Positions 2,059 to 43,656 of a stretch of DNA of 53,108 nucleotides are shown piece after piece. Origin of the DNA: a virus; the IMG/VR virus record IMGVR_UViG_3300050016_000310. One strand, given 5' to 3'. A program made the position numbers and the translations under genes. Every line of letters begins with the position of its first letter. The first letter of the stretch is position 1. The notes beneath the pieces were generated by a model, which had not been told where the DNA came from, did not search any database, and worked only from the letters and a program-made list of their open reading frames with translations.

Positions 2059-4809
2059 TTATCCAAGTGAGTTTCCACCATCGAAAATAACCGCAGGCGG
2101 TTGGGCCGCCGACCCACCTCCGTCAAAATTAGCCAGAGCCGGAATGTAAACCGGGTTGTTCCAAAACAGATTGTTCGCCCCGTCATTGGTAGGAACTGTT
2201 CCGGCAGCACCCACATTGGGTGGAAGCTGTAAGCTGATCGCAGAAGACGGATTCCAAAAAAGCGTCCCAACATTGGCCGCATTGAACTGTAGACTAGGGC
2301 TGGCTCCGCCATTGCCAATCAAGAAGTTGCTCAGGTACGTTCCACTGGACGTGTTGAGGGCTGCGCGAGTCGCGAGCACGATCGAGCCTGTTGTCGGATC
2401 GACTTTGTTCACGTAGGCGATGATCTGCGAGACGTTCGGAGACAGCGGCGCAGTCGTTTGGAATCCGCCCGCCACCGTGGCAGACAAATACAGGATCGCC
2501 CCTGCCGTATAGAGATGGGTATCGAGTCCACCCAGAATACCACCTGTCTGGATCCGTCCATAGCTGCCGGTCGCGATGGCTTCCATCGTGACGGCGAACG
2601 AAATGGTTGCAACCGAATTGCCCAGAGCCAGCGCGATTGTCGGGACCTGTCCGGTAATCCCAGCGAAAGAACCGTTCAGGTAGACGTTCTGACCGATCGG
2701 GATGGTCGAGCCTGAGTTGTTGTAAACGACGAAGACCGAGTCGCGACAGAGGGTCGTGACCATGCCGGTCTCATCGAGCAACCGAGCCCGTGAGAAGATC
2801 TGCGACAGGTCCGCATACTCCTCCATGATCCCGGCTGCCGGAGCGGCAGGAGTAGACGTGCGAGTCATGGCGACCGTGCTTGCCACGCTCACCGAGTTGA
2901 AGCCAGCGCTACCAGTCGCATCACGAGCCGCCAGCGTGTTCGGTACGCCGGTCGGACTGCTGTTCACCGGGTGAACGTGTCCCGCATCCGCATAGCGGTT
3001 GGTAGCGCCAGTAGCGCCAGTAGCGCCAGGTTGGATCGTCGTGATGTCGGAGAGCAGTCCCAGGATGATGTTGGAGTTCAGGAAGGAGCGCTGATCACCC
3101 AACACCGTGACGGTGCCACTGAGGGTCGTGTAGAGCGCCATCGGGACGCAGCCCGGGGGTAGAACGCCAGTCGTGTTGACTGTGACCACATGCGTAGTCG
3201 GGTCCACGTAGATCGCACCAGACGGCGTGTTGTCCGTCAAAGCCAGAGATCCAACAGGGATCGCGAACTGGGTGCCGTTGATTCTGATAGCGCCGCTGTT
3301 GTAGTTGACCGTCAGGCCACTTCCCGGGTAAGTGAGCCGCAGGACATTGGCGAGCGGCATCACGTTGACTAAGGACCGCTCATCGGTCGTACTCGTCACG
3401 GCGGTGGGGCCGGAGACAAACTGTGCGATCAGCAGAGCATCTACTCCAGGCGGCGTCGTGGAAGAGGTCACGAATGGTGCGCCGAGTGCGTTGATCGAAA
3501 TGTAGATGTAGCCCAGCGTGACGTTCGCAGCGACCGTGATGTTTCCCGCAGGGAGCTGAACGGTACTTCCATTCAGGCCGTTGGAAAAGCGCCCGCCCGT
3601 ATAGTTGATGACCAACCCGGCGAAGCTCGTGATGACGAATTCGTTCGGTCCCACCGTCGTATCGACCGTGATGACGCTGCCCGCAGTAGTCGCAACTGTC
3701 CCATTACCGCCAGTTACGGATCCACCGAAGACACCCGTCTGTCCGGTCGCCCCCGTGTTTCCGTTAATCCCGGCCAAGCCTTGGGGGCCGGTAGGGCCGG
3801 TAATGCCAGTAGCGCCATCCACACCCGTCAACCCGGTCGAACCCGTCTGGCCATTCGCGCCATCCACACCCGTCAACCCGGTCGAACCCGTCTGGCCGGA
3901 AGCTCCCGTCGCGCCGGTATTCCCTGCGCCCGTGGGACCGGTTGGCCCCGTGGGACCGGGAACGCTTGAATCAGCTCCCGTCGGACCTGTCGAGCCGGTA
4001 AATCCGGTGAATCCTGTCTGTCCCATCGCGCCGCCCGCGCCCGTCGGACCCACAGCTCCCGTTGCTCCAGTCGAGCCGGTGATTCCGATGCCCGTCTCAC
4101 CGGTCTCACCTTGATCACCATTCGCGCCCGTCGGACCCACAGCCCCCGTCTGTCCAGTCGAGCCGGTCGGACCCGTCACGGTAGAGTCAGCACCCGTCGG
4201 GCCTGTTACGCCTGCGGCTCCTGTCGAGCCGGTGGATCCGGTTGCTCCCGTCGCTCCCGCGCGGCCCGTGAAGCCCGTGCTGCCGGTCTGGCCACCTGCG
4301 CCGGTCGGACCCGTCACGGTTGAATCGGCGCCTGTGACGCCAGTCATGCCGGTCGCCCCCGTGCTGCCGGTCCCGCCAACCGCGCCGGTCGGACCCGTAT
4401 AACCAGAATTTCCAATTGCGCCGGTCGGACCCGTCGAGCCCGTTTCGCCCGCGCCCGTGACGCCAGTTAGGCCAGTCGCACCCGTCGCCCCCGTGCCGCC
4501 GGTCCCGCCAACCGCGCCGGTCGGACCCGTCGAGCCTGTCTGACCCGTCGTCCCGGTGTTGCCCGTCGGCCCCATCGCGATCCCCGTGGGGGAAGGCGGG
4601 GGAGGAGGGGGCGGAACGGGCGACCCGTTGTAGATGATCTGGAAAATGTCGGGGTTGTAGGGAGCGACGATCGCCGCATTGTACTGGGCCCGGCTGATCC
4701 CAACGGACGCCGCACCGGCAATATTGATCCCCTGCTGAATACCATCAAGGACGAAGATGAACGTCTGAGGGAGATTCGTGAGATTTTGAATCAGTGCAAC
4801 ATTTGCCAT
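2059..4809 (-). CDS. Collagen-like (Gly-X-Thr) fibre protein, 916 aa
   Basis: Roughly 90 consecutive G-X-T/G-X-Y triplets (about aa 80-360) follow a poly-Pro linker; the C-terminal domains are beta-rich. Confidence 0.8.
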
Positions 4810-4883: not shown

Positions 4884-5060
4884 CTGCGCGACCTCGCGCA
4901 GGTGAGGGAATAAATCGAATGCCGGTCTTTCCCGGCTGCCAGCTGAAATTACACGTCCAGCCCGTGACCGTTATCGGCATAACGATCAGCCTCTACCCTT
5001 TTCGAACGCCTTTTTAGCGCCTCAACCCACGCCTACGCGCAGGGGGATGTGGGGATTCCA
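4884..5060 (-). ncRNA. Candidate structured non-coding RNA immediately 3' of the suppressor tRNA
   Basis: Several stems in a 180-nt ORF-free gap: TGATCGTTAT-GCCG-ATAACGGTCA (4965-4988), GCTGGA/TTCAGC, GCCGG-GAAAGA-CCGGC (4921-4936), CTGCGCG-AGGT-CGCGCAG (4884-4901) and CCCAC...GTGGG. Confidence 0.5.
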
Positions 5061-5062
5061 AA

Positions 5063-5138
5063 TGGAGGGGGCACAGGGATTTGAACCCCGGATCAAGACT
5101 TTGAAAGTCCCTGCTTTAGGCCACTAAGCTATACCCCC
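5063..5138 (-). tRNA. tRNA with anticodon UCA (opal/UGA suppressor), discriminator U73, encoded CCA
   Basis: Reverse complement folds as GGGGGTA TA GCTT-AGTGGCCTA-AAGC A GGGAC-TT TCA AA-GTCTT GATC CGGGG-TTCAAAT-CCCTG TGCCCCC T CCA. This is a full 76-nt cloverleaf with a 4-nt variable loop, unlike tRNA-Sec. Confidence 0.93.
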
Positions 5139-5176
5139 GACATACTAGGATCCCTTTACCATCCCGCGCCAGATTT

Positions 5177-5497
5177 TCAACCCGGGACCATCGACATCAT
5201 CCGGAGTCTCTTGGTCAAGCGCTTCCACCCCAAGCCCACCACGGCCGTCAGCTTGTCCTCCAGATCCGGCTCGCGGAAGAGTGCCCGAGGTCCCAGGGAC
5301 AGATCGTCCCGGACCCTGGCCTGCCAGAAAGCTTCCAGATCCTCCACCTGGAGCAACACGACTATCCCATTCCCCCACGGGGTCCCCGGGTTCTCCAAAC
5401 AGTACTGAGTGGCTCCATGGACCGCCTGGACAGCCTTCTGTTCAGGGGAGAGCCCCGCGTCCAGGATCACATAGAGTTTCTCCTCAGCCGACAGCAC
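5177..5497 (-). CDS. Peptidyl-tRNA hydrolase II (PTH2)-like protein
   Basis: GTG start at 5497 with GGAGG SD. Motifs KLYVILDAGLSPEQKAVQAVHG, VVLLQV and FREPDLEDKLTAV are typical of phage PTH2-like proteins. Confidence 0.75.
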   Translation of the reverse strand: MLSAEEKLYVILDAGLSPEQKAVQAVHGATQYCLENPGTPWGNGIVVLLQVEDLEAFWQARVRDDLSLGPRALFREPDLEDKLTAVVGLGWKRLTKRLRMMSMVPG

Positions 5498-5828
5498 GAG
5501 GCACCTCCAGGACATCAGCAGCCCGCTCCGCCTCCAGGCGCGGCCGGTAGACCGCCAGAAGCTCGTCAATCTGCTCCTGAAACCGGTACGGCGTGTATCG
5601 GCGCGACGGTTCGATCTGCTCCATCGTTCTACCGCGCAGGAGACATCTGACGATGTGTAGATAACGAAACTTCGCACCCAACCCCTGCGGATCCAGCAGG
5701 GGATAAGTAAAGGGAAGCTTCCGGGATTCATTGGACTGGGCTTGCCGGTAGAGAGGACGGGATTCGCGGATCTGGGCGGCCAAAGACTTCAGTTCAGTTT
5801 TCATTTCAAGCAAAACAACAGATTTCAT
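5484..5828 (-). CDS. Hypothetical phage protein (LK.LAAQIR...R.LHI..CLLRGR.MEQIE), translationally coupled to the PTH2-like gene
   Basis: ATG at 5828 with GGAG SD 6 nt upstream; its end overlaps the PTH2 start. Confidence 0.7.
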   Translation of the reverse strand: MKSVVLLEMKTELKSLAAQIRESRPLYRQAQSNESRKLPFTYPLLDPQGLGAKFRYLHIVRCLLRGRTMEQIEPSRRYTPYRFQEQIDELLAVYRPRLEAERAADVLEVPRAVG

Positions 5829-5884
5829 AAAATTCTCCAAAGGTTTGAGGGTGAGACTCATAGACAGAAACCTTGGAGATTTTT
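5829..5884 (-). promoter_or_regulatory. SD-sequestering hairpin (putative translational attenuator)
   Basis: On the minus strand AAAATCTCCAAGGTTT pairs with AAACCTTTGGAGAATTTT, so CTCC masks the GGAG SD of the ATG at 5828. Confidence 0.7.
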
Positions 5885-5918
5885 AGGGAGGCTTGAAGAT
5901 TCAATGAGACCGAAACAT
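5883..5918 (-). CDS. Putative leader peptide MFRSH-(UGA)-IFKPP-(UAA)
   Basis: AAAGGA SD 7 nt before ATG 5918; codons ATG TTT CGG TCT CAT TGA ATC TTC AAG CCT CCC TAA. Confidence 0.6.
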
Positions 5919-5954
5919 GACCTGATCCTTTCGAGGCGCTACGGCCTCATCCAT

Positions 5955-5983
5955 ACAGTGGGAACGAGACTTTAACTTGTCAA
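5955..5983 (-). promoter_or_regulatory. sigma70-like promoter for the leader/PTH2/tRNA unit
   Basis: TTGACA-17 nt-CACTGT: perfect -35, weak -10. Confidence 0.45.
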
Positions 5984-6423
5984 CCAGGACCCTTCGCTTT
6001 CCGGGAGGCCGCGAGATTCTCTTCAAGGGCCTTCGTCAAAAATTCAATGACCTGCGGGATTTCTTTGTCGGTCAGGTTGAAGTTTTCTTTTTCATTCCCG
6101 ATCTGCACATACGGAGTGCCGTCCGTACTCTGCGTCTTCCGCTTCAGTTCCACCGTGCCCATGTCCAACCCATCGCTGGTTCTTGGGTTCAGCTGGAGGG
6201 ATGAGGGTTCCCCTTCCGAAGACAGGACCTTCGCCACCGAGGCATAGTCCAAGCCCAGGCCCCGCGCAAAGCCAACGTCCTCCGCGCAGTCCGGGCAGAG
6301 CCTCAGCTTGTCACTCAGCTGGGCCGGATTTTTATGGCAAAGCCTGCATGGGCAAGCACCAGCGGGCTTTGCCGCAGCTTCCACAATCGAAGCCAATACT
6401 GGGTATTTGGCCAAACGTCCCAT
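5980..6423 (-). CDS. Hypothetical Zn-finger protein with N-terminal YPVLASIV motif
   Basis: ATG 6423 lies 7 nt after TTATTT; contains CPCRLC...CPDC. Confidence 0.65.
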   Translation of the reverse strand: MGRLAKYPVLASIVEAAAKPAGACPCRLCHKNPAQLSDKLRLCPDCAEDVGFARGLGLDYASVAKVLSSEGEPSSLQLNPRTSDGLDMGTVELKRKTQSTDGTPYVQIGNEKENFNLTDKEIPQVIEFLTKALEENLAASRKAKGPG

Positions 6424-6437
6424 GTCCAGAAAATAAC

Positions 6438-7046
6438 CTACGCTGGGGAGTAGCCCCACTCATGGAGGCTGTCGCCGTTCGTAAAGAGATCCTTGGCTTT
6501 GACCGTCTTGGTCAGGATTTGATATTGCCCGTTGAGGGCAGAGATTCCGTGCTGCTTTGCGTAGTTCCGGCTGATCGACACCCAATCCCCCGGGTGGATC
6601 ACCCTCTTTTCTGCGGGAGCGCTGGGGGGCTGTGCTTGGAGTTTTTCCAGCTCATCGGAGATCTGGTCGTAAAACTTGTGCCGATCCATTCCTCTCAGGT
6701 CCACGTCTCGTGGAAATTTCCCGTACTTCTGAACGTATCGTTTCTGCGTCTCGATCTCCTGGATCCGATCTTCCCTCGTTAGGGCTTTCGGGACCGCCCG
6801 GTAGATCTTCACCAAGGCATTAGGTCTGCCTCGGCAACGCTGCATCAGCCCCACGGAGAGTCGATCTTCTCCCCCGCCACCCTGATCCCCATAGAGACGG
6901 GCACCTTCAAACGAGTAGATGTCCTCCGGGTAGACCCCGGTCAGATCATGCATCGGAGCGCCGCTGTCTTTGTCCGGGGCGGAATGCTCACCCCGGTACT
7001 CCCCGGGAGCGACCGCAAGGATCCGGGCAAGCGCCGGGAAAAGCGT
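6438..7046 (-). CDS. Putative ADP-ribosyltransferase-fold domain; the coding frame begins directly after the UGA of 7047-7382
   Basis: The frame is open from 7046: TLFPALARILAVAPGEYRGEHSAP...GAPMHDL...YPEDIY...VKIYRAVPK...IHPGDWVSISRNYAKQHG...LHEWGY. The first standard start is at 6953. The R...S.S...E pattern suggests an ART fold (inference). Confidence 0.6.
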   Translation of the reverse strand, partial: TLFPALARILAVAPGEYRGEHSAPDKDSGAPMHDLTGVYPEDIYSFEGARLYGDQGGGGEDRLSVGLMQRCRGRPNALVKIYRAVPKALTREDRIQEIETQKRYVQKYGKFPRDVDLRGMDRHKFYDQISDELEKLQAQPPSAPAEKRVIHPGDWVSISRNYAKQHGISALNGQYQILTKTVKAKDLFTNGDSLHEWGYSPA

Positions 7047-7382
7047 TCAAGTCCTTTGCGCACGCTTGCGCTTCTTCGCATCATCGATCCGGTCCAGGCG
7101 AGCCAGGATGGAATTGGCGAGCTTCTGCTTCTTGCGCTCGACCAGTTCATTGGCCATCGCGCGGATCTGGGCGACCTGATTGTCAGACAACCCCAGCTCC
7201 TCCTCGCGGATCTCGGGCTCCGGGATCTTGGGCAAAAGTTTGTCGAGCGCATCCATGGCGTCTTCCGATCTGAGGGCCAACACGGTCATCTCCCGCGCCA
7301 ACACCTCATCGCCCGCCTTGAAGGTCTGGCGAGCGACGTAAATCAACCGCTGAGTGGGATGGGTGGGCGTGGAGTTCGGCAT
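7047..7382 (-). CDS. Hypothetical coiled-coil protein, ends in UGA in frame with the downstream ORF
   Basis: AAGG SD, TTATTC motif at 7407-7412, helical charged sequence. Confidence 0.7.
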   Translation of the reverse strand: MPNSTPTHPTQRLIYVARQTFKAGDEVLAREMTVLALRSEDAMDALDKLLPKIPEPEIREEELGLSDNQVAQIRAMANELVERKKQKLANSILARLDRIDDAKKRKRAQRT

Positions 7383-7480: not shown

Positions 7481-8347
7481 TTGATGAACTACCTTACTGA
7501 ATCCAAACTGGGCAACATTCTAAAAAGCGTCTTCTTTACCTCTCAAGTTGAAGGACAATTCAGGATTAATTTGGAAGGGACTTCCTTCCGTAAGATAGAT
7601 TATCGGGTGGTTCTGTCTGAGGAGGACGCCCTCAAATTCCTAAAACTGCCCTATTTTTCGGCCCAACATTTTGAAGACCAAATTGAGATAAAAGATTCCT
7701 CAGTCATCCTATTACTTGAATTTGATGGACATCAACATTATGAAAATGTGAAAGCACACAAGGATAGGGGGACGGGGTTGGGTTTCTGCGCATGGGAAGA
7801 GATCGACTCTACCACCTTTGGCCTTCGTATTCCTTATTGGCTTCAATTAGACCGAAGGCTCATGCACTTATGGTTTGGTATCTTTGAAGCTTACAATGAA
7901 GACTTTCCTCAAGGATTTATCTCTCCAAAAGTAAAGCTACCCAGCTATTTTGGGGTTTCTGGAGAGAGTAGATTTCTTAAGGAGATGGAAACTATCCCCT
8001 CAGAAATTTCAAAAGAAGTTTATGAATCCTTGTTAAAGAAAGAAATCAAATTTGGTGCCCCTCAAGTAGCTTCGCTGAAACTTTGGGGAGAGTTACTTCG
8101 TAAATTTGATCCAGAGAGAAGCAGGCTGCTGAAGAAATTTTTAGCAGTAGGGTGTGAACCTTCCAAGTTCTATAAAAGATTCCCTAAAACTCTTTACGAA
8201 GCACATGAAAGAGACCATCTCACTGCATCTATTTATCAGGGCTATTTTATCGAACCTAAATCAGAAGAAAAATTCCAAGAATCCCTGCTCCAGTACAAGC
8301 GCTACCACAAAATTAAAAACGGGAGAGGCAGCGCCTCTCCCGTTTGA
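7481..8347 (+). CDS. AT-rich PD-(D/E)XK/Vsr-like putative homing endonuclease
   Basis: KIDY...LLEFDGHQHY...LRIPYW motifs; markedly lower GC than the flanks; oriented opposite to its neighbours, just downstream of the capsid gene. Confidence 0.65.
   Translation: MMNYLTESKLGNILKSVFFTSQVEGQFRINLEGTSFRKIDYRVVLSEEDALKFLKLPYFSAQHFEDQIEIKDSSVILLLEFDGHQHYENVKAHKDRGTGLGFCAWEEIDSTTFGLRIPYWLQLDRRLMHLWFGIFEAYNEDFPQGFISPKVKLPSYFGVSGESRFLKEMETIPSEISKEVYESLLKKEIKFGAPQVASLKLWGELLRKFDPERSRLLKKFLAVGCEPSKFYKRFPKTLYEAHERDHLTASIYQGYFIEPKSEEKFQESLLQYKRYHKIKNGRGSASPV
8315..8345. terminator. Bidirectional intrinsic terminator downstream of the major capsid gene
   Basis: AAAAACGGGAGAGGC-AGC-GCCTCTCCCGTTT. Confidence 0.75.
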
Positions 8348-8380
8348 ATTTTCAGAACCGAGAATCGACACCGAGGTCGA

Positions 8381-9499
8381 TCAGACTCTTACGCCGTGAA
8401 CGACCGCGCGGCCGTTGGCGACGATGAGCCCCATAATTTTTTGCATATACCATCCTCTTTCAGGCTTTCCTATGAGGTACATGTTGATAGGGGCCGTGGT
8501 AACATCCTTCCGGACCGTCTGAGCGCCGAGCACGTTCGGCGCCGACAGGAAGTAGAACTCGCCCGAGTTCAGGACCTTGAGGGTCTCGTACCGCAGACCG
8601 TCCGTGATCAGGTTCACGCCGTACATCGAGCCGAGCGAACCCGACATGATGACTTCGCGCTTGGTCACGGGATCGAAGTACGTGGCGAATTCTGGATCCG
8701 TCAGGATGTCGTTCCACAGGTCCATAGCGATGATCGCGGTGGCGCAAGGATTGCCCCACTGTTGGATCTGCGTCCGGGCCTGGGAGAACACTGACGGGGT
8801 GAAGGTCGTGAAACCCACAGGGTCGTTGTAGCTCGTGGCGGCGACGTTGAGCAGGCCGGTGAGGACCTGATCTTCCTTCACCATCATCTGCTCCAGGCCG
8901 TCGATGTACTTGTCATCGAGCAAATCGCCGGGAGCCTGTTCGAGTTCGCGGTCTTCGATCAGGATGTGCGCCTTGACGTAGAATTCGTCAGGGAACAGGT
9001 AGGACTGATTGATCTGGGAAGTGATCCCAACCGAATCGGTCGCCGCGTAGAACGCGAGGACGTCCTTTTTGCGGATCTTGATACGGCCGATGTCGCCCTT
9101 CTTCAGATCCTTGCGCATCATGATCTTGCGCAAGAAGCCGTCGCGTCCCATCGTTTCGAGCACTTCGTCGCCAAGGACTTCCCCGACGACCCGCCAGGTT
9201 TCGCCCGACTTGTCGGACATGGCAGCTTCGACGAGTTCAGCGCGCTGATTCGCGAAGTCGTGCTGTTCCTGGATCTCGCCAGTTGTCGCGGCAAGAGCCA
9301 GAGCGCCAATGCGCTGCATGACTTCTTTCTTGGAACCGGCGTTGATCTCGCCATTCTTGTCTTCGAACGCTCCGGCGCCGACTTCGACCTTGCCGTTGCG
9401 GGGATGGACCGCGAGAGCCGTGCGGCTTTCGCTGAGTTCATTACCCGTGCGGGTAATGACCACTGATTTCTTCGAGTAGGGATTGAGGGCGGTTGCCAT
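8381..9499 (-). CDS. Major capsid protein (HK97 fold, jumbo-phage type)
   Basis: 372 aa with strong codon bias and AGGAG SD. Motifs RDGFLRKIM, FPDEFYV..HILIEDRE, MVKED, W.DI...F..YFDPVTK.E....G.LG..YGV.LITDG.R resemble large-myovirus capsids. Last gene of the scaffold-decoration-MCP cluster. Confidence 0.85.
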   Translation of the reverse strand: MATALNPYSKKSVVITRTGNELSESRTALAVHPRNGKVEVGAGAFEDKNGEINAGSKKEVMQRIGALALAATTGEIQEQHDFANQRAELVEAAMSDKSGETWRVVGEVLGDEVLETMGRDGFLRKIMMRKDLKKGDIGRIKIRKKDVLAFYAATDSVGITSQINQSYLFPDEFYVKAHILIEDRELEQAPGDLLDDKYIDGLEQMMVKEDQVLTGLLNVAATSYNDPVGFTTFTPSVFSQARTQIQQWGNPCATAIIAMDLWNDILTDPEFATYFDPVTKREVIMSGSLGSMYGVNLITDGLRYETLKVLNSGEFYFLSAPNVLGAQTVRKDVTTAPINMYLIGKPERGWYMQKIMGLIVANGRAVVHGVRV

Positions 9500-41043: not shown

Positions 41044-41264
41044 TGCTTCTCTCGTATCCCCAATACGTCGAGAAGTTCGCGGACTCCAATTTTGCCCGGG
41101 TGTTCCTGGTTCACTACCTCCAGTCCGGCTACCAGCTCGAAACCCTCCATAACCCGGAGGACATCAAGGGGCTCGCAGACCTGACCGTCATCACACTCTC
41201 GCTGGCCGTCTTCCCCAGTTTCTTCCTCCGGGAGAGCATCGCTCCCAACGCCTGGATCCACTGA
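41040..41264 (+). CDS. Small hypothetical protein
   Basis: ATGA-coupled; fills the gap before terL. Confidence 0.55.
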   Translation: MMLLSYPQYVEKFADSNFARVFLVHYLQSGYQLETLHNPEDIKGLADLTVITLSLAVFPSFFLRESIAPNAWIH

Positions 41265-41265
41265 T

Positions 41266-43287
41266 ATGGCCAGGCCCAAGAAAAAATTCGATCCCCAGGA
41301 CATCCTCCGGCAGATCGTTTCGAGCGACTTTGATCTCACCCGCTTCGCCGAGGTGGACGAACGAGACATTCCACAACCTTCCAATTTTGTAGAATGGATC
41401 ACCGGCCGCGCGTTCTGCGACGCCACCCTTCTGCCCTGGCAAGTCGAAGCCGGTATGCACCTGTTCTCCGATTATTGTCCAGAGTGTTCGGATCCAGAAT
41501 ATCTCGCCGATCTATTCAATGAAACGATGGGAGAGATCCTCGACCATGTCGTATTTTTGAAGCAGGGCGTTTGCCCAAAATGTAAAAAAAATCGTCTTGA
41601 ATTATTCACTCCGGGGATTTTACATCCCTCCAAACCTTCGCTTAAAAATGAATTCATTGGCAACATGGGCCAAAGAATAGGGAAATCAAAATTCCTAGTA
41701 TCTGCCGGGTGTTACCAGACAAATCAATGGGTGAGGCTCCCGGATCCCCATGAATTTTACAATCTTCCCAAGATGGAAGTTGTACTGGGAACTTTCTCTG
41801 CTCTATCGGCAGAACAGGCGGAAGAAAATCTCTGGATGCCTTTCAAGGCGCTTTACGATCAGGCCCCCTGGTTCAAAAAATACAACGAATTTTTGAGATC
41901 AGAAGAAAAGCGTCTTTCCGTTCCCCTGTGTGACATTGGGGGGACTTATATTTTTTATCCGCACAAAAGATTGTTACTTTCGTTTACCGGCGCGGACGAT
42001 CGTAAAAAAAGAGGACGCACTCGGTTGTTTGGACAAATTGATGAAATCGCTTACCTCAATACGGAGGAGGGCACGTCCAAGAAAAAGGTTATGGACGCGG
42101 ACAAGAACTACGCGGCGTTGAACAACTCCCTTTCCACGATCCGCCAGAAAGCGCTGAATAAAATTGCAACAGGGCATTTCGACGTTCCTCTAGCCATCAT
42201 GTACAACGCCTCCTCTCCCTACAACGTCCAGGATAAGATCATGCGACTCACTAAATCGGGCCCTGACAATCCCTTTGCTGTCGTTATGCACAAGGCTACT
42301 TGGGAAGGGAATCCAGATTTCACAGAGCATTCTCTGCGAGCCCAAAATCAAGCTCTCTCCCAGGCCGAGTTCGATCGCGACTTCGGCGCCGTGCCTCCCT
42401 TCTCCGATTCCCCCTACATCGGGGATGCCCGCGTGCTGGAGAAGCTCTGCCTTCCCCCCGATAAGCACCAGGCGCTCATCGTTGCGACCCGCGAGATCCA
42501 CAAGGATCAGATGGGCGATTCCTACCTCTATTTGAAGGCGAAGATTGCCCGGCCGGACAAAAACACGCCGCTACTCCTGGCACTCGACAACGGCTACAAT
42601 CACAATGCCTTCGGCGCCGCGATCTTTGGATTCGATGGCATCAAAAAGAAAGCGATCCTTCGAGCCCTCTTCAGTCTTTACCCGGATCCGAGCAACGGCC
42701 TCAGCATCCACTTCCCATCCATGTTTGAGCATTTCATTATTCCGTTGGTGAAATACCTGCGGATCCATCACATCATTTACGATCGCTGGCAATCACTCGA
42801 CCAGATCCAACGGCTCCGAGACATGAAGATCAATGCTCAAGCGCACAGCCTGTCTTTTGAAAAAGATCTCCTGCCGTTCAAGCAAATGTTGTTGTCGGGG
42901 AACATGATCCTACCCCCTTGTGAAATGCCGATCCAAGACGTCAAGGATGCGCCTAATCCCACTCACGTCACCCGGAATAAGCCGGTGGCGAATCTGATCT
43001 GGCAGGCCCTCACGGTCCGGCAAGTCCGCCGCAAGGTGCTCAAGCCCCTCGAAGGGGATGACGATTTGTTCCGCGCCTTCGTCTTAGGTGGCTCCCGCTT
43101 CCTGGCGGAGGACATCCAGAAACAATACGCGAGTTTTAATGGAGTGCGTCAATCCCTCCAAGGAGGGTTCGTCGGCAGCTACAATTCCATGAAAAAGGTT
43201 GGCGGGATGGCGCCGGGAGCCCCAGCTCAGGTCGCCTCCAACTTTGCGAGCTACCGTGGCTTTACCCGGGGAGCGGGTAGGAAGTGA
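41266..43287 (+). CDS. terL: Terminase large subunit
   Basis: L.PWQ adenine-binding motif, Walker A MGQRIGKS, Walker B GQIDEIAY, coupling motif ASSP, RNase H-like LALDNG, YDRWQS and DDLFRA. Confidence 0.9.
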   Translation: MARPKKKFDPQDILRQIVSSDFDLTRFAEVDERDIPQPSNFVEWITGRAFCDATLLPWQVEAGMHLFSDYCPECSDPEYLADLFNETMGEILDHVVFLKQGVCPKCKKNRLELFTPGILHPSKPSLKNEFIGNMGQRIGKSKFLVSAGCYQTNQWVRLPDPHEFYNLPKMEVVLGTFSALSAEQAEENLWMPFKALYDQAPWFKKYNEFLRSEEKRLSVPLCDIGGTYIFYPHKRLLLSFTGADDRKKRGRTRLFGQIDEIAYLNTEEGTSKKKVMDADKNYAALNNSLSTIRQKALNKIATGHFDVPLAIMYNASSPYNVQDKIMRLTKSGPDNPFAVVMHKATWEGNPDFTEHSLRAQNQALSQAEFDRDFGAVPPFSDSPYIGDARVLEKLCLPPDKHQALIVATREIHKDQMGDSYLYLKAKIARPDKNTPLLLALDNGYNHNAFGAAIFGFDGIKKKAILRALFSLYPDPSNGLSIHFPSMFEHFIIPLVKYLRIHHIIYDRWQSLDQIQRLRDMKINAQAHSLSFEKDLLPFKQMLLSGNMILPPCEMPIQDVKDAPNPTHVTRNKPVANLIWQALTVRQVRRKVLKPLEGDDDLFRAFVLGGSRFLAEDIQKQYASFNGVRQSLQGGFVGSYNSMKKVGGMAPGAPAQVASNFASYRGFTRGAGRK

Positions 43288-43302
43288 GCTTATTTTCAAA
43301 TC

Positions 43303-43656
43303 ATGAGCCAGGCGTTAACCAAAGATGAAATCTATCGGATCCTGGCAACCCGGCACTCAGGTCAAGATCCCAAAATCCTTAAAGAAATTTCCTACAATCT
43401 AGCCCTGGCGAGCACGACTGAGAGCAGTCTGGACGGCAGAGCTGCGCAGGCATTGAAGCGCCTCCAGGGGGACACCAACCCTCCCAGCAAGGTTCTCCAT
43501 CAAGCGGCGCAGGCGGCCTCCCACAATCAGCGCAATCGGTGCCCCATCTGCAAAAGCGCGATGGAAGTAGTAAAACTTCTGGAAGATCAGCCCGCATACC
43601 ATTGTGTGCAGCACAAGATCACGGAACCATTTCCCAAGGAAACCGGGGGCACGTAA
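43303..43656 (+). CDS. Small Zn-ribbon protein between terminase and portal
   Basis: CPICKSAM...YHCVQH; TAATG coupling to the portal gene. Confidence 0.7.
   Translation: MSQALTKDEIYRILATRHSGQDPKILKEISYNLALASTTESSLDGRAAQALKRLQGDTNPPSKVLHQAAQAASHNQRNRCPICKSAMEVVKLLEDQPAYHCVQHKITEPFPKETGGT

Follow-up and report, generated by a model that had tools for sequence, protein, structure and literature searches.

A putative leader-peptide switch sensing UGA readthrough ahead of a PTH2-fold gene and an opal suppressor tRNA in a phage

The leader and the genes behind it

We analyzed a small operon on IMG/VR virus record IMGVR_UViG_3300050016_000310, a stretch of 53,108 nt that is referred to here as the window; coordinates are those of its minus strand unless stated otherwise. 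The operon comprises a short leader open reading frame (ORF) with an in-frame UGA, two small genes that we call X and Y, and an opal suppressor tRNA, and an earlier note on this DNA had read the leader as a switch that senses readthrough of the UGA. The leader lies where that note had placed it (5883 to 5918) and has 12 codons, ATG TTT CGG TCT CAT TGA ATC TTC AAG CCT CCC TAA, corresponding to M-F-R-S-H-[UGA]-I-F-K-P-P-[UAA]. Its Shine-Dalgarno (SD) sequence, AAAGGA (5926 to 5931), stands 7 nt upstream of the ATG; in relatives, AGGAG or GGAGG is found at this distance from a GTG or ATG start. The internal UGA is codon 6 (5903 to 5901) and is followed by an A, the two proline codons CCT CCC (5891 to 5886) directly precede the terminal UAA (5885 to 5883), and 54 nt separate the leader stop from the start of X. 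Within the 53-kb window, a leader pattern of Pro-Pro followed by a stop is unique to this site.

A predicted hairpin, identified by folding and by locus-specific pairing in 23 loci, extends from the U of the terminal UAA to the A of the X AUG (5828 to 5885). The 5' arm reads UAAAAAUCUCCAAGGUUU from the terminal UAA onward, and the 3' arm, AAACCUUUGGAGAAUUUUA, contains the X SD and the A of the AUG; within the hairpin, the anti-SD CUCC (5878 to 5875) pairs with the X SD GGAG (5838 to 5835). Folding of a 72-nt segment (-16.2 kcal/mol) reproduced the CUCC/GGAG pairing, so that the SD-masking hairpin beginning at the UAA, as the earlier note had drawn it, holds up, and the duplex between the leader end and the SD has a z score of -5.1 relative to shuffled sequences.

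Gene X (5484 to 5828) encodes a protein of 114 amino acids that an AlphaFold2 (AF2) model predicts to be all-helical, and gene Y (5177 to 5497) encodes a divergent PTH2-fold protein of 106 amino acids, assigned by profile and fold and counted from a GTG at 5497 that overlaps the stop of X (an alternative ATG lies at 5515). Both genes end in TGA. The tRNA that the earlier note had reported after the PTH2-like gene (5063 to 5138) was called by ARAGORN, matches the Rfam tRNA model at 59.3 bits, and has a normal shape: it is 76 nt long, has a 7-bp acceptor stem, aligns end to end with the standard tRNA model, and carries the anticodon UCA, the discriminator base U73, and an encoded CCA. ARAGORN labeled it 'SeC' because of the anticodon only, and we rejected a selenocysteine tRNA because the long extra arm is missing, the acceptor stem is 7 bp rather than 8 to 9 bp, and the length is 76 nt rather than approximately 90 to 100 nt.

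Conservation of the leader and hairpin

Related loci were drawn from collections of viral and metagenome sequences and retrieved through exact protein matches; these lie on phage contigs of roughly 100 to 470 kb. In nearly all loci of sufficient length, X is directly followed by a Y homolog and, 25 to 110 nt later, by a suppressor tRNA, and X, Y, and the suppressor tRNA thus form a conserved phage module. When we read the 200 nt preceding X locus by locus, almost all showed a common design consisting of an SD, a start codon, 1 to 8 codons, a stop, 4 to 20 in-frame codons, and Pro-Pro, usually with a different stop next. When we formulated this strictly (a start, 1 to 8 codons, TAG or TGA, and an in-frame Pro-Pro 35 to 115 nt before X), 20 of 24 distinct loci carried the pattern, compared to a mean of 0.35 in dinucleotide shuffles (maximum of 4 in 300) and to 34 of 3,059 sequence windows (1.1%) elsewhere in the loci; two additional loci outside the 24 also fit. 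The leaders have 8 to 25 codons, each with one or two internal stops that always fall by codon 9 and no closer than 12 nt ahead of the anti-SD, and the gap between leader and X is 49 to 62 nt in most loci. Examples are M-R-F-M-G-H-[UAG]-V-F-K-P-P-[UAA] in locus L019, M-R-[UAG]-I-K-E-Q-P-P-[UAA] in L022, and M-K-I-E-F-S-[UAG]-I-Q-R-A-P-P-[UGA] in L005, while the leaders of L015, L026, L030, L034, and L037 contain two internal UAGs each. Short ORFs and hairpins are common, and the 161-nt region as a whole folds only at a z score of -2.3, as one would expect if the arrangement had come about by chance and had no regulatory function; given its conservation, reading frame, and spacing, together with the covariation statistics described below, we regard this as extremely unlikely.

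The leader could also be an ordinary upstream ORF, coupled to X in phages that read the stop as sense, with an internal stop that has no role and senses nothing. In-frame TAG does occur within Y of amber-type relatives, in at least 10 loci, so TAG is decoded there; however, every leader contains one or two such codons while X has none in approximately 30 loci, and the stop always keeps within the early codons of the leader and ahead of the anti-SD. Moreover, TGA is a normal stop in the window, where it terminates 7 of 23 long ORFs, X and Y included, and where a single candidate gene with an in-frame TGA was found in 53 kb (6438 to 7382). We give an ordinary upstream ORF a slim chance. That X never contains an internal stop and Y often contains a TAG argues instead for a module built around suppression, and the in-frame UAG of amber-type Y genes would be a second gate on the same gene; the Y gene of the window has no in-frame TGA.

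The identity and context of the internal stops are consistent with decoding by the linked tRNA. Every internal stop is followed by a purine (30/30), a context that favors suppressor tRNAs. The codon after the internal stop is, in addition, almost always AUY or GUN (isoleucine or valine), a regularity that goes beyond the purine rule alone. In all 16 loci where both are visible, the linked tRNA has the anticodon that reads the internal stop, 15 being UAG with CUA and one, the window, UGA with UCA. A tRNA(UCA) call upstream of a TAG leader in L017 has a poor acceptor stem, and we considered it doubtful and left it out of the mismatch count. The loci with the closest relatives of X (L039, L041 to L043, and L044; 62 to 70% identity) have the leader M-F-Y-[UAG]-V-x-H-P-P-[UAA] together with tRNA(CUA). 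The leader might nevertheless report release factor activity (release factor 2 [RF2], or RF1 in the relatives) lowered by the phage or by the state of the host, and not the tRNA: stop codon readthrough is a competition in which any drop in RF2 gives the same output, and prfB, where an early in-frame UGA senses RF2, is an established precedent. The consistent match between the stop and an anticodon in the same operon, the purine at every +4 position, which favors tRNA decoding, and the absence from the leader of a prfB-like frameshift site or internal SD all speak for the suppressor tRNA as the input, leaving release factor sensing a small chance. At the other end of the leader, where the anti-SD follows the stop, the proline codons vary synonymously (CCU CCC, CCG CCU, CCA CCC, CCC CCA, and others), and the retention of Pro-Pro despite these changes points to selection on the peptide and not on the RNA.

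Pairing between the leader end and the X SD is also a property of the wider group. The X SD is paired in the minimum free energy structure with bases -12 to +20 around the terminal leader stop in 19 of 22 loci, and in 17 of 22 the duplex between leader end and SD is stronger than 95% of shuffles. We further compared each leader end against the SD regions of all loci (23 loci, 5,000 permutations): pairing of a leader end with its own SD region gave -15.2 kcal/mol, compared to -8.9 kcal/mol for mismatched loci, and no permutation did as well (0/5,000). A locus's own SD region ranked first among all partners in 14 of 23 loci and within the top three in 21 of 23, and since own pairing surpasses foreign pairing, the complementarity is locus specific and not merely that of a generic anti-SD. 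Two layouts occur, one in which the CCUCC of the Pro-Pro codons serves as the anti-SD and another, to which the window belongs, in which UCUCC lies just 3' of the stop. The relatives thus retain what the earlier note had expected of them, namely the leader pattern, an anti-SD hairpin that covaries, and a suppressor tRNA nearby whose anticodon matches the internal stop.

The distances between the stops and the hairpin also fit across loci, as the geometric argument of the earlier note requires. Counted from the first base of the stop concerned, the anti-SD begins 12 to 67 nt (median, 25; window, 25) after the last internal stop and at -15 to +12 nt (window, +7) relative to the terminal stop. 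A ribosome shields approximately 12 to 13 nt 3' of the first base of its A-site codon, and on the assumption of such a footprint, termination at the internal stop would leave the hairpin intact, while a ribosome terminating at the final stop would sit over the anti-SD.

The main rival reading is that the hairpin, instead of or besides masking the SD, acts as an intrinsic terminator unless a readthrough ribosome occupies its 5' arm, in which case suppression would license transcription of X, Y, and the tRNA and thereby exert positive feedback on the suppressor. In approximately six relatives (L015, L018, L025, L026, L030, and L034) the stem ends in GGAGG followed by 5 to 7 U, the shape of an intrinsic terminator, which suggests that some members also attenuate transcription; an A-run and a U-run flank the stem in the window as well, and the tRNA at the 3' end of the operon could be reached by transcriptional control only. 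In the window, however, the stem is AU-rich, the loop is 27 nt long, and the U-run comprises just 4 U; the terminator scan was silent at this site, and most loci of the window type have no U-tract. A U-rich spacer between SD and AUG is, furthermore, simply good for initiation, and a conserved motif before the tRNA may be its own promoter. We consider transcriptional attenuation unlikely.

The proposed switch among known systems

We judge it probable, at roughly 70%, that the leader is a translational switch that reports UGA suppression. A ribosome that obeys the in-frame UGA would be released 25 nt short of the anti-SD, the hairpin would stay closed, and the SD and start codon of X would remain hidden. 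Where tRNA(UCA) out-competes RF2 at the UGA, the ribosome would read five more codons to Pro-Pro-UAA. Termination is slow after a C-terminal Pro-Pro (Hayes, Bose & Sauer 2002, pmid 12105207, as cited in PMC12856214), and slow termination here would cover the CUCC, positioned 7 nt from where the UAA begins and 4 nt from where it ends. The hairpin would then melt and a second ribosome could initiate on X. Y would be made by translational coupling to X, and the output of both proteins would be approximately proportional to the efficiency of suppression. The comparison shows the sequence elements, that they are conserved, that the pairing covaries, and that stop and anticodon agree; we infer readthrough by tRNA(UCA), pausing at Pro-Pro-stop, and melting of the hairpin by the ribosome, and equally that control is translational rather than transcriptional and that the output serves peptidyl-tRNA recycling. 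Our guess is that X and Y tune or buffer suppression, for example by acting on the suppressor or on dropped-off (peptidyl-)tRNA, because the phage still uses UGA as an ordinary stop.

Several observations weigh against this interpretation. The window is the sole opal type among the collected loci, and the paired change of stop and anticodon therefore amounts to a single evolutionary event; at frequencies of 15:1, a match between stop and anticodon would arise by coincidence approximately once in 16. A scan of genome contigs gave no relative, and the additional loci retrieved were amber types only. The leader is not uniform across relatives either, since L002 has no proline, L003 and L004 have a single one, Pro-Pro is followed by TGG in L006, and Pro-Pro lies several codons before the stop in L013, L017, L037, and L047. 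The F-K-P-P of the window leader is not the RAPP or RGPP arrest motif, and Pro-Pro-UAA may be resolved rapidly by elongation factor P and RF2. Strong suppression would carry a cost, given that X, Y, and other long ORFs of the window end in TGA. A 10-bp stem 5' of the main hairpin that holds the leader SD, AUG, and first codons could limit translation of the leader itself, and a motif conserved between Y and the tRNA may act as a promoter for the tRNA alone or direct its processing.

The 10-bp stem just mentioned (5901 to 5953) is formed by AUGAGGCCGU with UCGGUCUCAU, encloses the leader SD and AUG, covers leader codons 3 to 5, and was not seen in relatives. Two relatives look like variant gating designs judging from their sequences: in L017 (536 to 650), the frame past the second TAG runs into the X start codon and would give a leader-X fusion on double readthrough, and L033 (approximately 2410 to 2480) has an ATG ATA TGA that begins a frame shared with X and lacks Pro-Pro.

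The mechanism class is leader-peptide translational attenuation of the ermC/cat type. As in the ermCL/ermC, cat, and cmlA systems, where a paused ribosome opens an SD-hiding hairpin, there is a short leader ORF with its own SD next to the regulated gene, and a hairpin extends from the leader end to the SD of that gene. The input of ermC and cat is a drug-bound ribosome, whereas that of the window leader would be readthrough of an in-frame stop by a suppressor tRNA, and the sequence offers no sign of a drug, while the conserved in-frame stop suggests a different input. The window also has a single hairpin and no alternative-pairing scheme.

A second point of comparison is the RAPP/RGPP-type arrest peptides ApdA, ApdP, and ApcA, along with SecM, which has RAGP (PMC10951233, PMC10987492, PMC12992588). 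These resemble the window leader in that a C-terminal x-x-Pro-Pro on a small upstream ORF controls the next gene. The Arg of the RAPP/RGPP core is essential, and AAPP is arrest defective (PMC12992588). The window leader has F-K-P-P without this Arg and with UAA directly after it, and at 11 residues it is not a secretion monitor; true RAPP or RGPP occurs in three relatives (L005, L014, and L047). Arrest peptides precede sec/yidC localization genes and have no stop codon gating, unlike the window leader, which precedes X, a PTH2-fold gene, and a tRNA.

The use of stop recognition efficiency as a signal is shared with prfB, through its early UGA, and with TnaC, through its Pro-stop end. In prfB, however, a +1 frameshift at CUU UGA C with an internal SD reports RF2, whereas the window has CAT TGA ATC read in the zero frame, with a phage tRNA as the competitor; in TnaC, tryptophan is the input and Rho carries out the response. 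Like the code-change modules of recoded phages (suppressor tRNA together with aminoacyl-tRNA synthetase and release factor), the locus is a small standard-code operon in which suppression would time later expression. Those modules (Borges et al., bioRxiv 10.1101/2021.08.26.457843, where the words 'leader' and 'hydrolase' do not occur) are described without a leader, hairpin, hydrolase, or X-like protein, and the window phage is not globally recoded. The bar minigenes of lambda are ORFs of 2 to 6 codons ending in a stop whose peptidyl-tRNA drop-off is relieved by Pth, and they are toxic by-products in pth-defective hosts, not control elements; a minigene-like leader before a Pth2-fold gene recalls them, a likeness that is only a lead.

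A full-text literature search turned up neither a suppression-sensing leader nor a Pth2/suppressor-tRNA module, and the earlier note likewise was aware of no account of the arrangement. If the proposed switch is real, it would be the first natural leader-peptide switch with nonsense suppression as its input. Many standard-code phages carry suppressor tRNAs without a known target, and the module supplies them with a cis target that is conserved and with a control logic that is plausible; it also connects suppression with a Pth2-fold protein as well as with a new, widespread helical family. The opal form beside close amber relatives, in which stop and anticodon change together, is a natural specificity control, and the exchange of UAG/CUA for UGA/UCA between close relatives indicates that the device may be retargeted by changing two sites. 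A readthrough sensor this compact and portable (approximately 90 nt) could be of use in genetic code expansion and could offer an entry to how phages time and dose stop reassignment. A broader reading, which we regard as possible though doubtful, is that leader, X, Y, and tRNA form a self-contained controller of stop codon meaning in an otherwise standard-code phage, in which X and Y feed back on the suppressor tRNA or on its competition with the release factor and so either keep readthrough at a set point or lock it in the on state, such that UGA-interrupted genes such as the one at 6438 to 7382 would be expressed on schedule.

Gene products, flanking signals, and phage context

The start of X was placed at ATG 5828 because all homologs begin at the equivalent Met-Lys with a GGAG SD, and an upstream ATG at 5861 was rejected on the same basis. 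The X family has more than 140 unnamed members without a Pfam domain, and they carry an invariant H-x(3)-C-L-L-R-G-R-T-M-E-Q-I-E motif. Searches for a known family or defense function gave no match in Pfam, PHROG, NCBIfam, or PADLOC. The AF2 model has a predicted local distance difference test (pLDDT) score of 93, and a Foldseek search of the PDB with it gave no match below an E value of 2; there was no usable match in the ESM Atlas, VIA-align recovered generic helical hairpins only (Z of 6.0 or less), and a shape search of the atlas recovered unrelated families at template modeling (TM) scores of 0.52 or less. A complex prediction for X with Y scored 0.00, which makes no call either way.

Profile and fold agree on the PTH2-like label that the earlier note had given to Y. 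The Y protein of the window has no match to PF01981 at an E value below 0.1 on its own; among 21 aligned family members, 16 match this domain (best E value, 9.3e-13), and the family profile matches the Pth2 structure 2zv3 in the PDB at 8.6e-7. The AF2 model of Y has a pLDDT of 91.8, and its top nine Foldseek matches in the PDB are all Pth2/Bit1 chains, with TM scores of up to 0.74 (entries 3erj, 1wn2, 2zv3, 1q7s, and 1xty). The catalytic residues of Pth2 are presumably the Lys of a GKGK loop and the Asp of a D-A-G-x-T motif. In the Y alignments, S-x-S-Q stands in place of G-K-G-K and an invariant E-P-D in place of D-A-G-x-T, and on the basis of these replacements the chemistry may differ and Y may have an altered activity relative to Pth2. 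The Y genes with in-frame TAG are found in L004, L016 to L021, L024/25, L027 to L030, and L037/38; two TAGs occur in L021, and the position is mostly near codons 33 to 36. Just after its suppressor tRNA, L004 also encodes a second and more canonical PTH2-like protein (3943 to 4332), which belongs to PHROG 1866, as does Y, and aligns to the Y family with a hhalign probability of 94%.

The tRNA(UCA) of the window has an acceptor stem (GGGGGUA/UGCCCCC) and U73 in common with the amber tRNA of the distant locus L019 (1079 to 1155), and in these features it differs from the tRNAs of the closest relatives; this sharing with a distant locus only hints that the tRNA was exchanged and not point-mutated. 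The conserved motif between Y and the tRNA lies at approximately 5140 to 5165, 10 to 25 nt before the tRNA, and reads GGGATGGTAAAGG in the window and GGATCGGTAAAAGC in L039, L041, and L043.

The promoter proposed in the earlier note stands in part. TTGACA (5983 to 5978), a 17-nt spacer, and CACTGT (5960 to 5955) are present as a candidate promoter (5955 to 5983) whose -35 element overlaps the stop codon of the upstream gene, and TTGAC is found at the same position in three close relatives (L039, L041, and L044). The -10 element is weak, matching 2 of 6 positions, and a consensus promoter scan did not call TTGACA-17-CACTGT. At the other end, the "structured RNA" that had been read into 5062 to 4884 was not borne out: the segment has no Rfam match, folds at a z score of -1.7, and is not conserved in relatives. 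What the terminator scan and folding recovered there is two terminator-like hairpins after the tRNA (4884 to 4936), GCCGG..CCGGC (4936 to 4921) followed by a U-rich tail and CUGCGCG..CGCGCAG (4901 to 4884), which are likewise not conserved in relatives and which are likely the end of the operon.

A search of sequencing runs found the DNA of the window in peat metagenomes only, with no RNA run among those listed, and a DNA similarity search against known phages gave no match at the locus; the terminase of the window shares approximately 30% identity with the terminases of jumbo phages, PaBG among them. The phage is not globally recoded, in that TGA is not used as a sense codon in the manner of code 4. 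We rejected TGA recoding at 7481 to 9466 and 41185 to 43656, where the readthrough portions appear to be noncoding or separate genes. A candidate second target of the tRNA, identified by homology and PHROG score, is the gene at 6438 to 7382, which consists of a 111-codon ORF, an in-frame TGA, and a part resembling the ParB C terminus. The two ORF parts share one frame with a single TGA between them (7049 to 7047; next base A), and reading through the TGA lifts the PHROG score from 99 to 122 bits. The homology to phage proteins, which includes a conserved Y-R-G-x-H-x-A-P motif, begins 15 to 27 codons upstream of the first ATG, GTG, or TTG after the TGA, and for this reason UGA readthrough seems to be required for the complete protein of 314 amino acids. 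In L039, the counterpart of the upstream part is a stand-alone gene, and 6438 to 7382 therefore stays a candidate.

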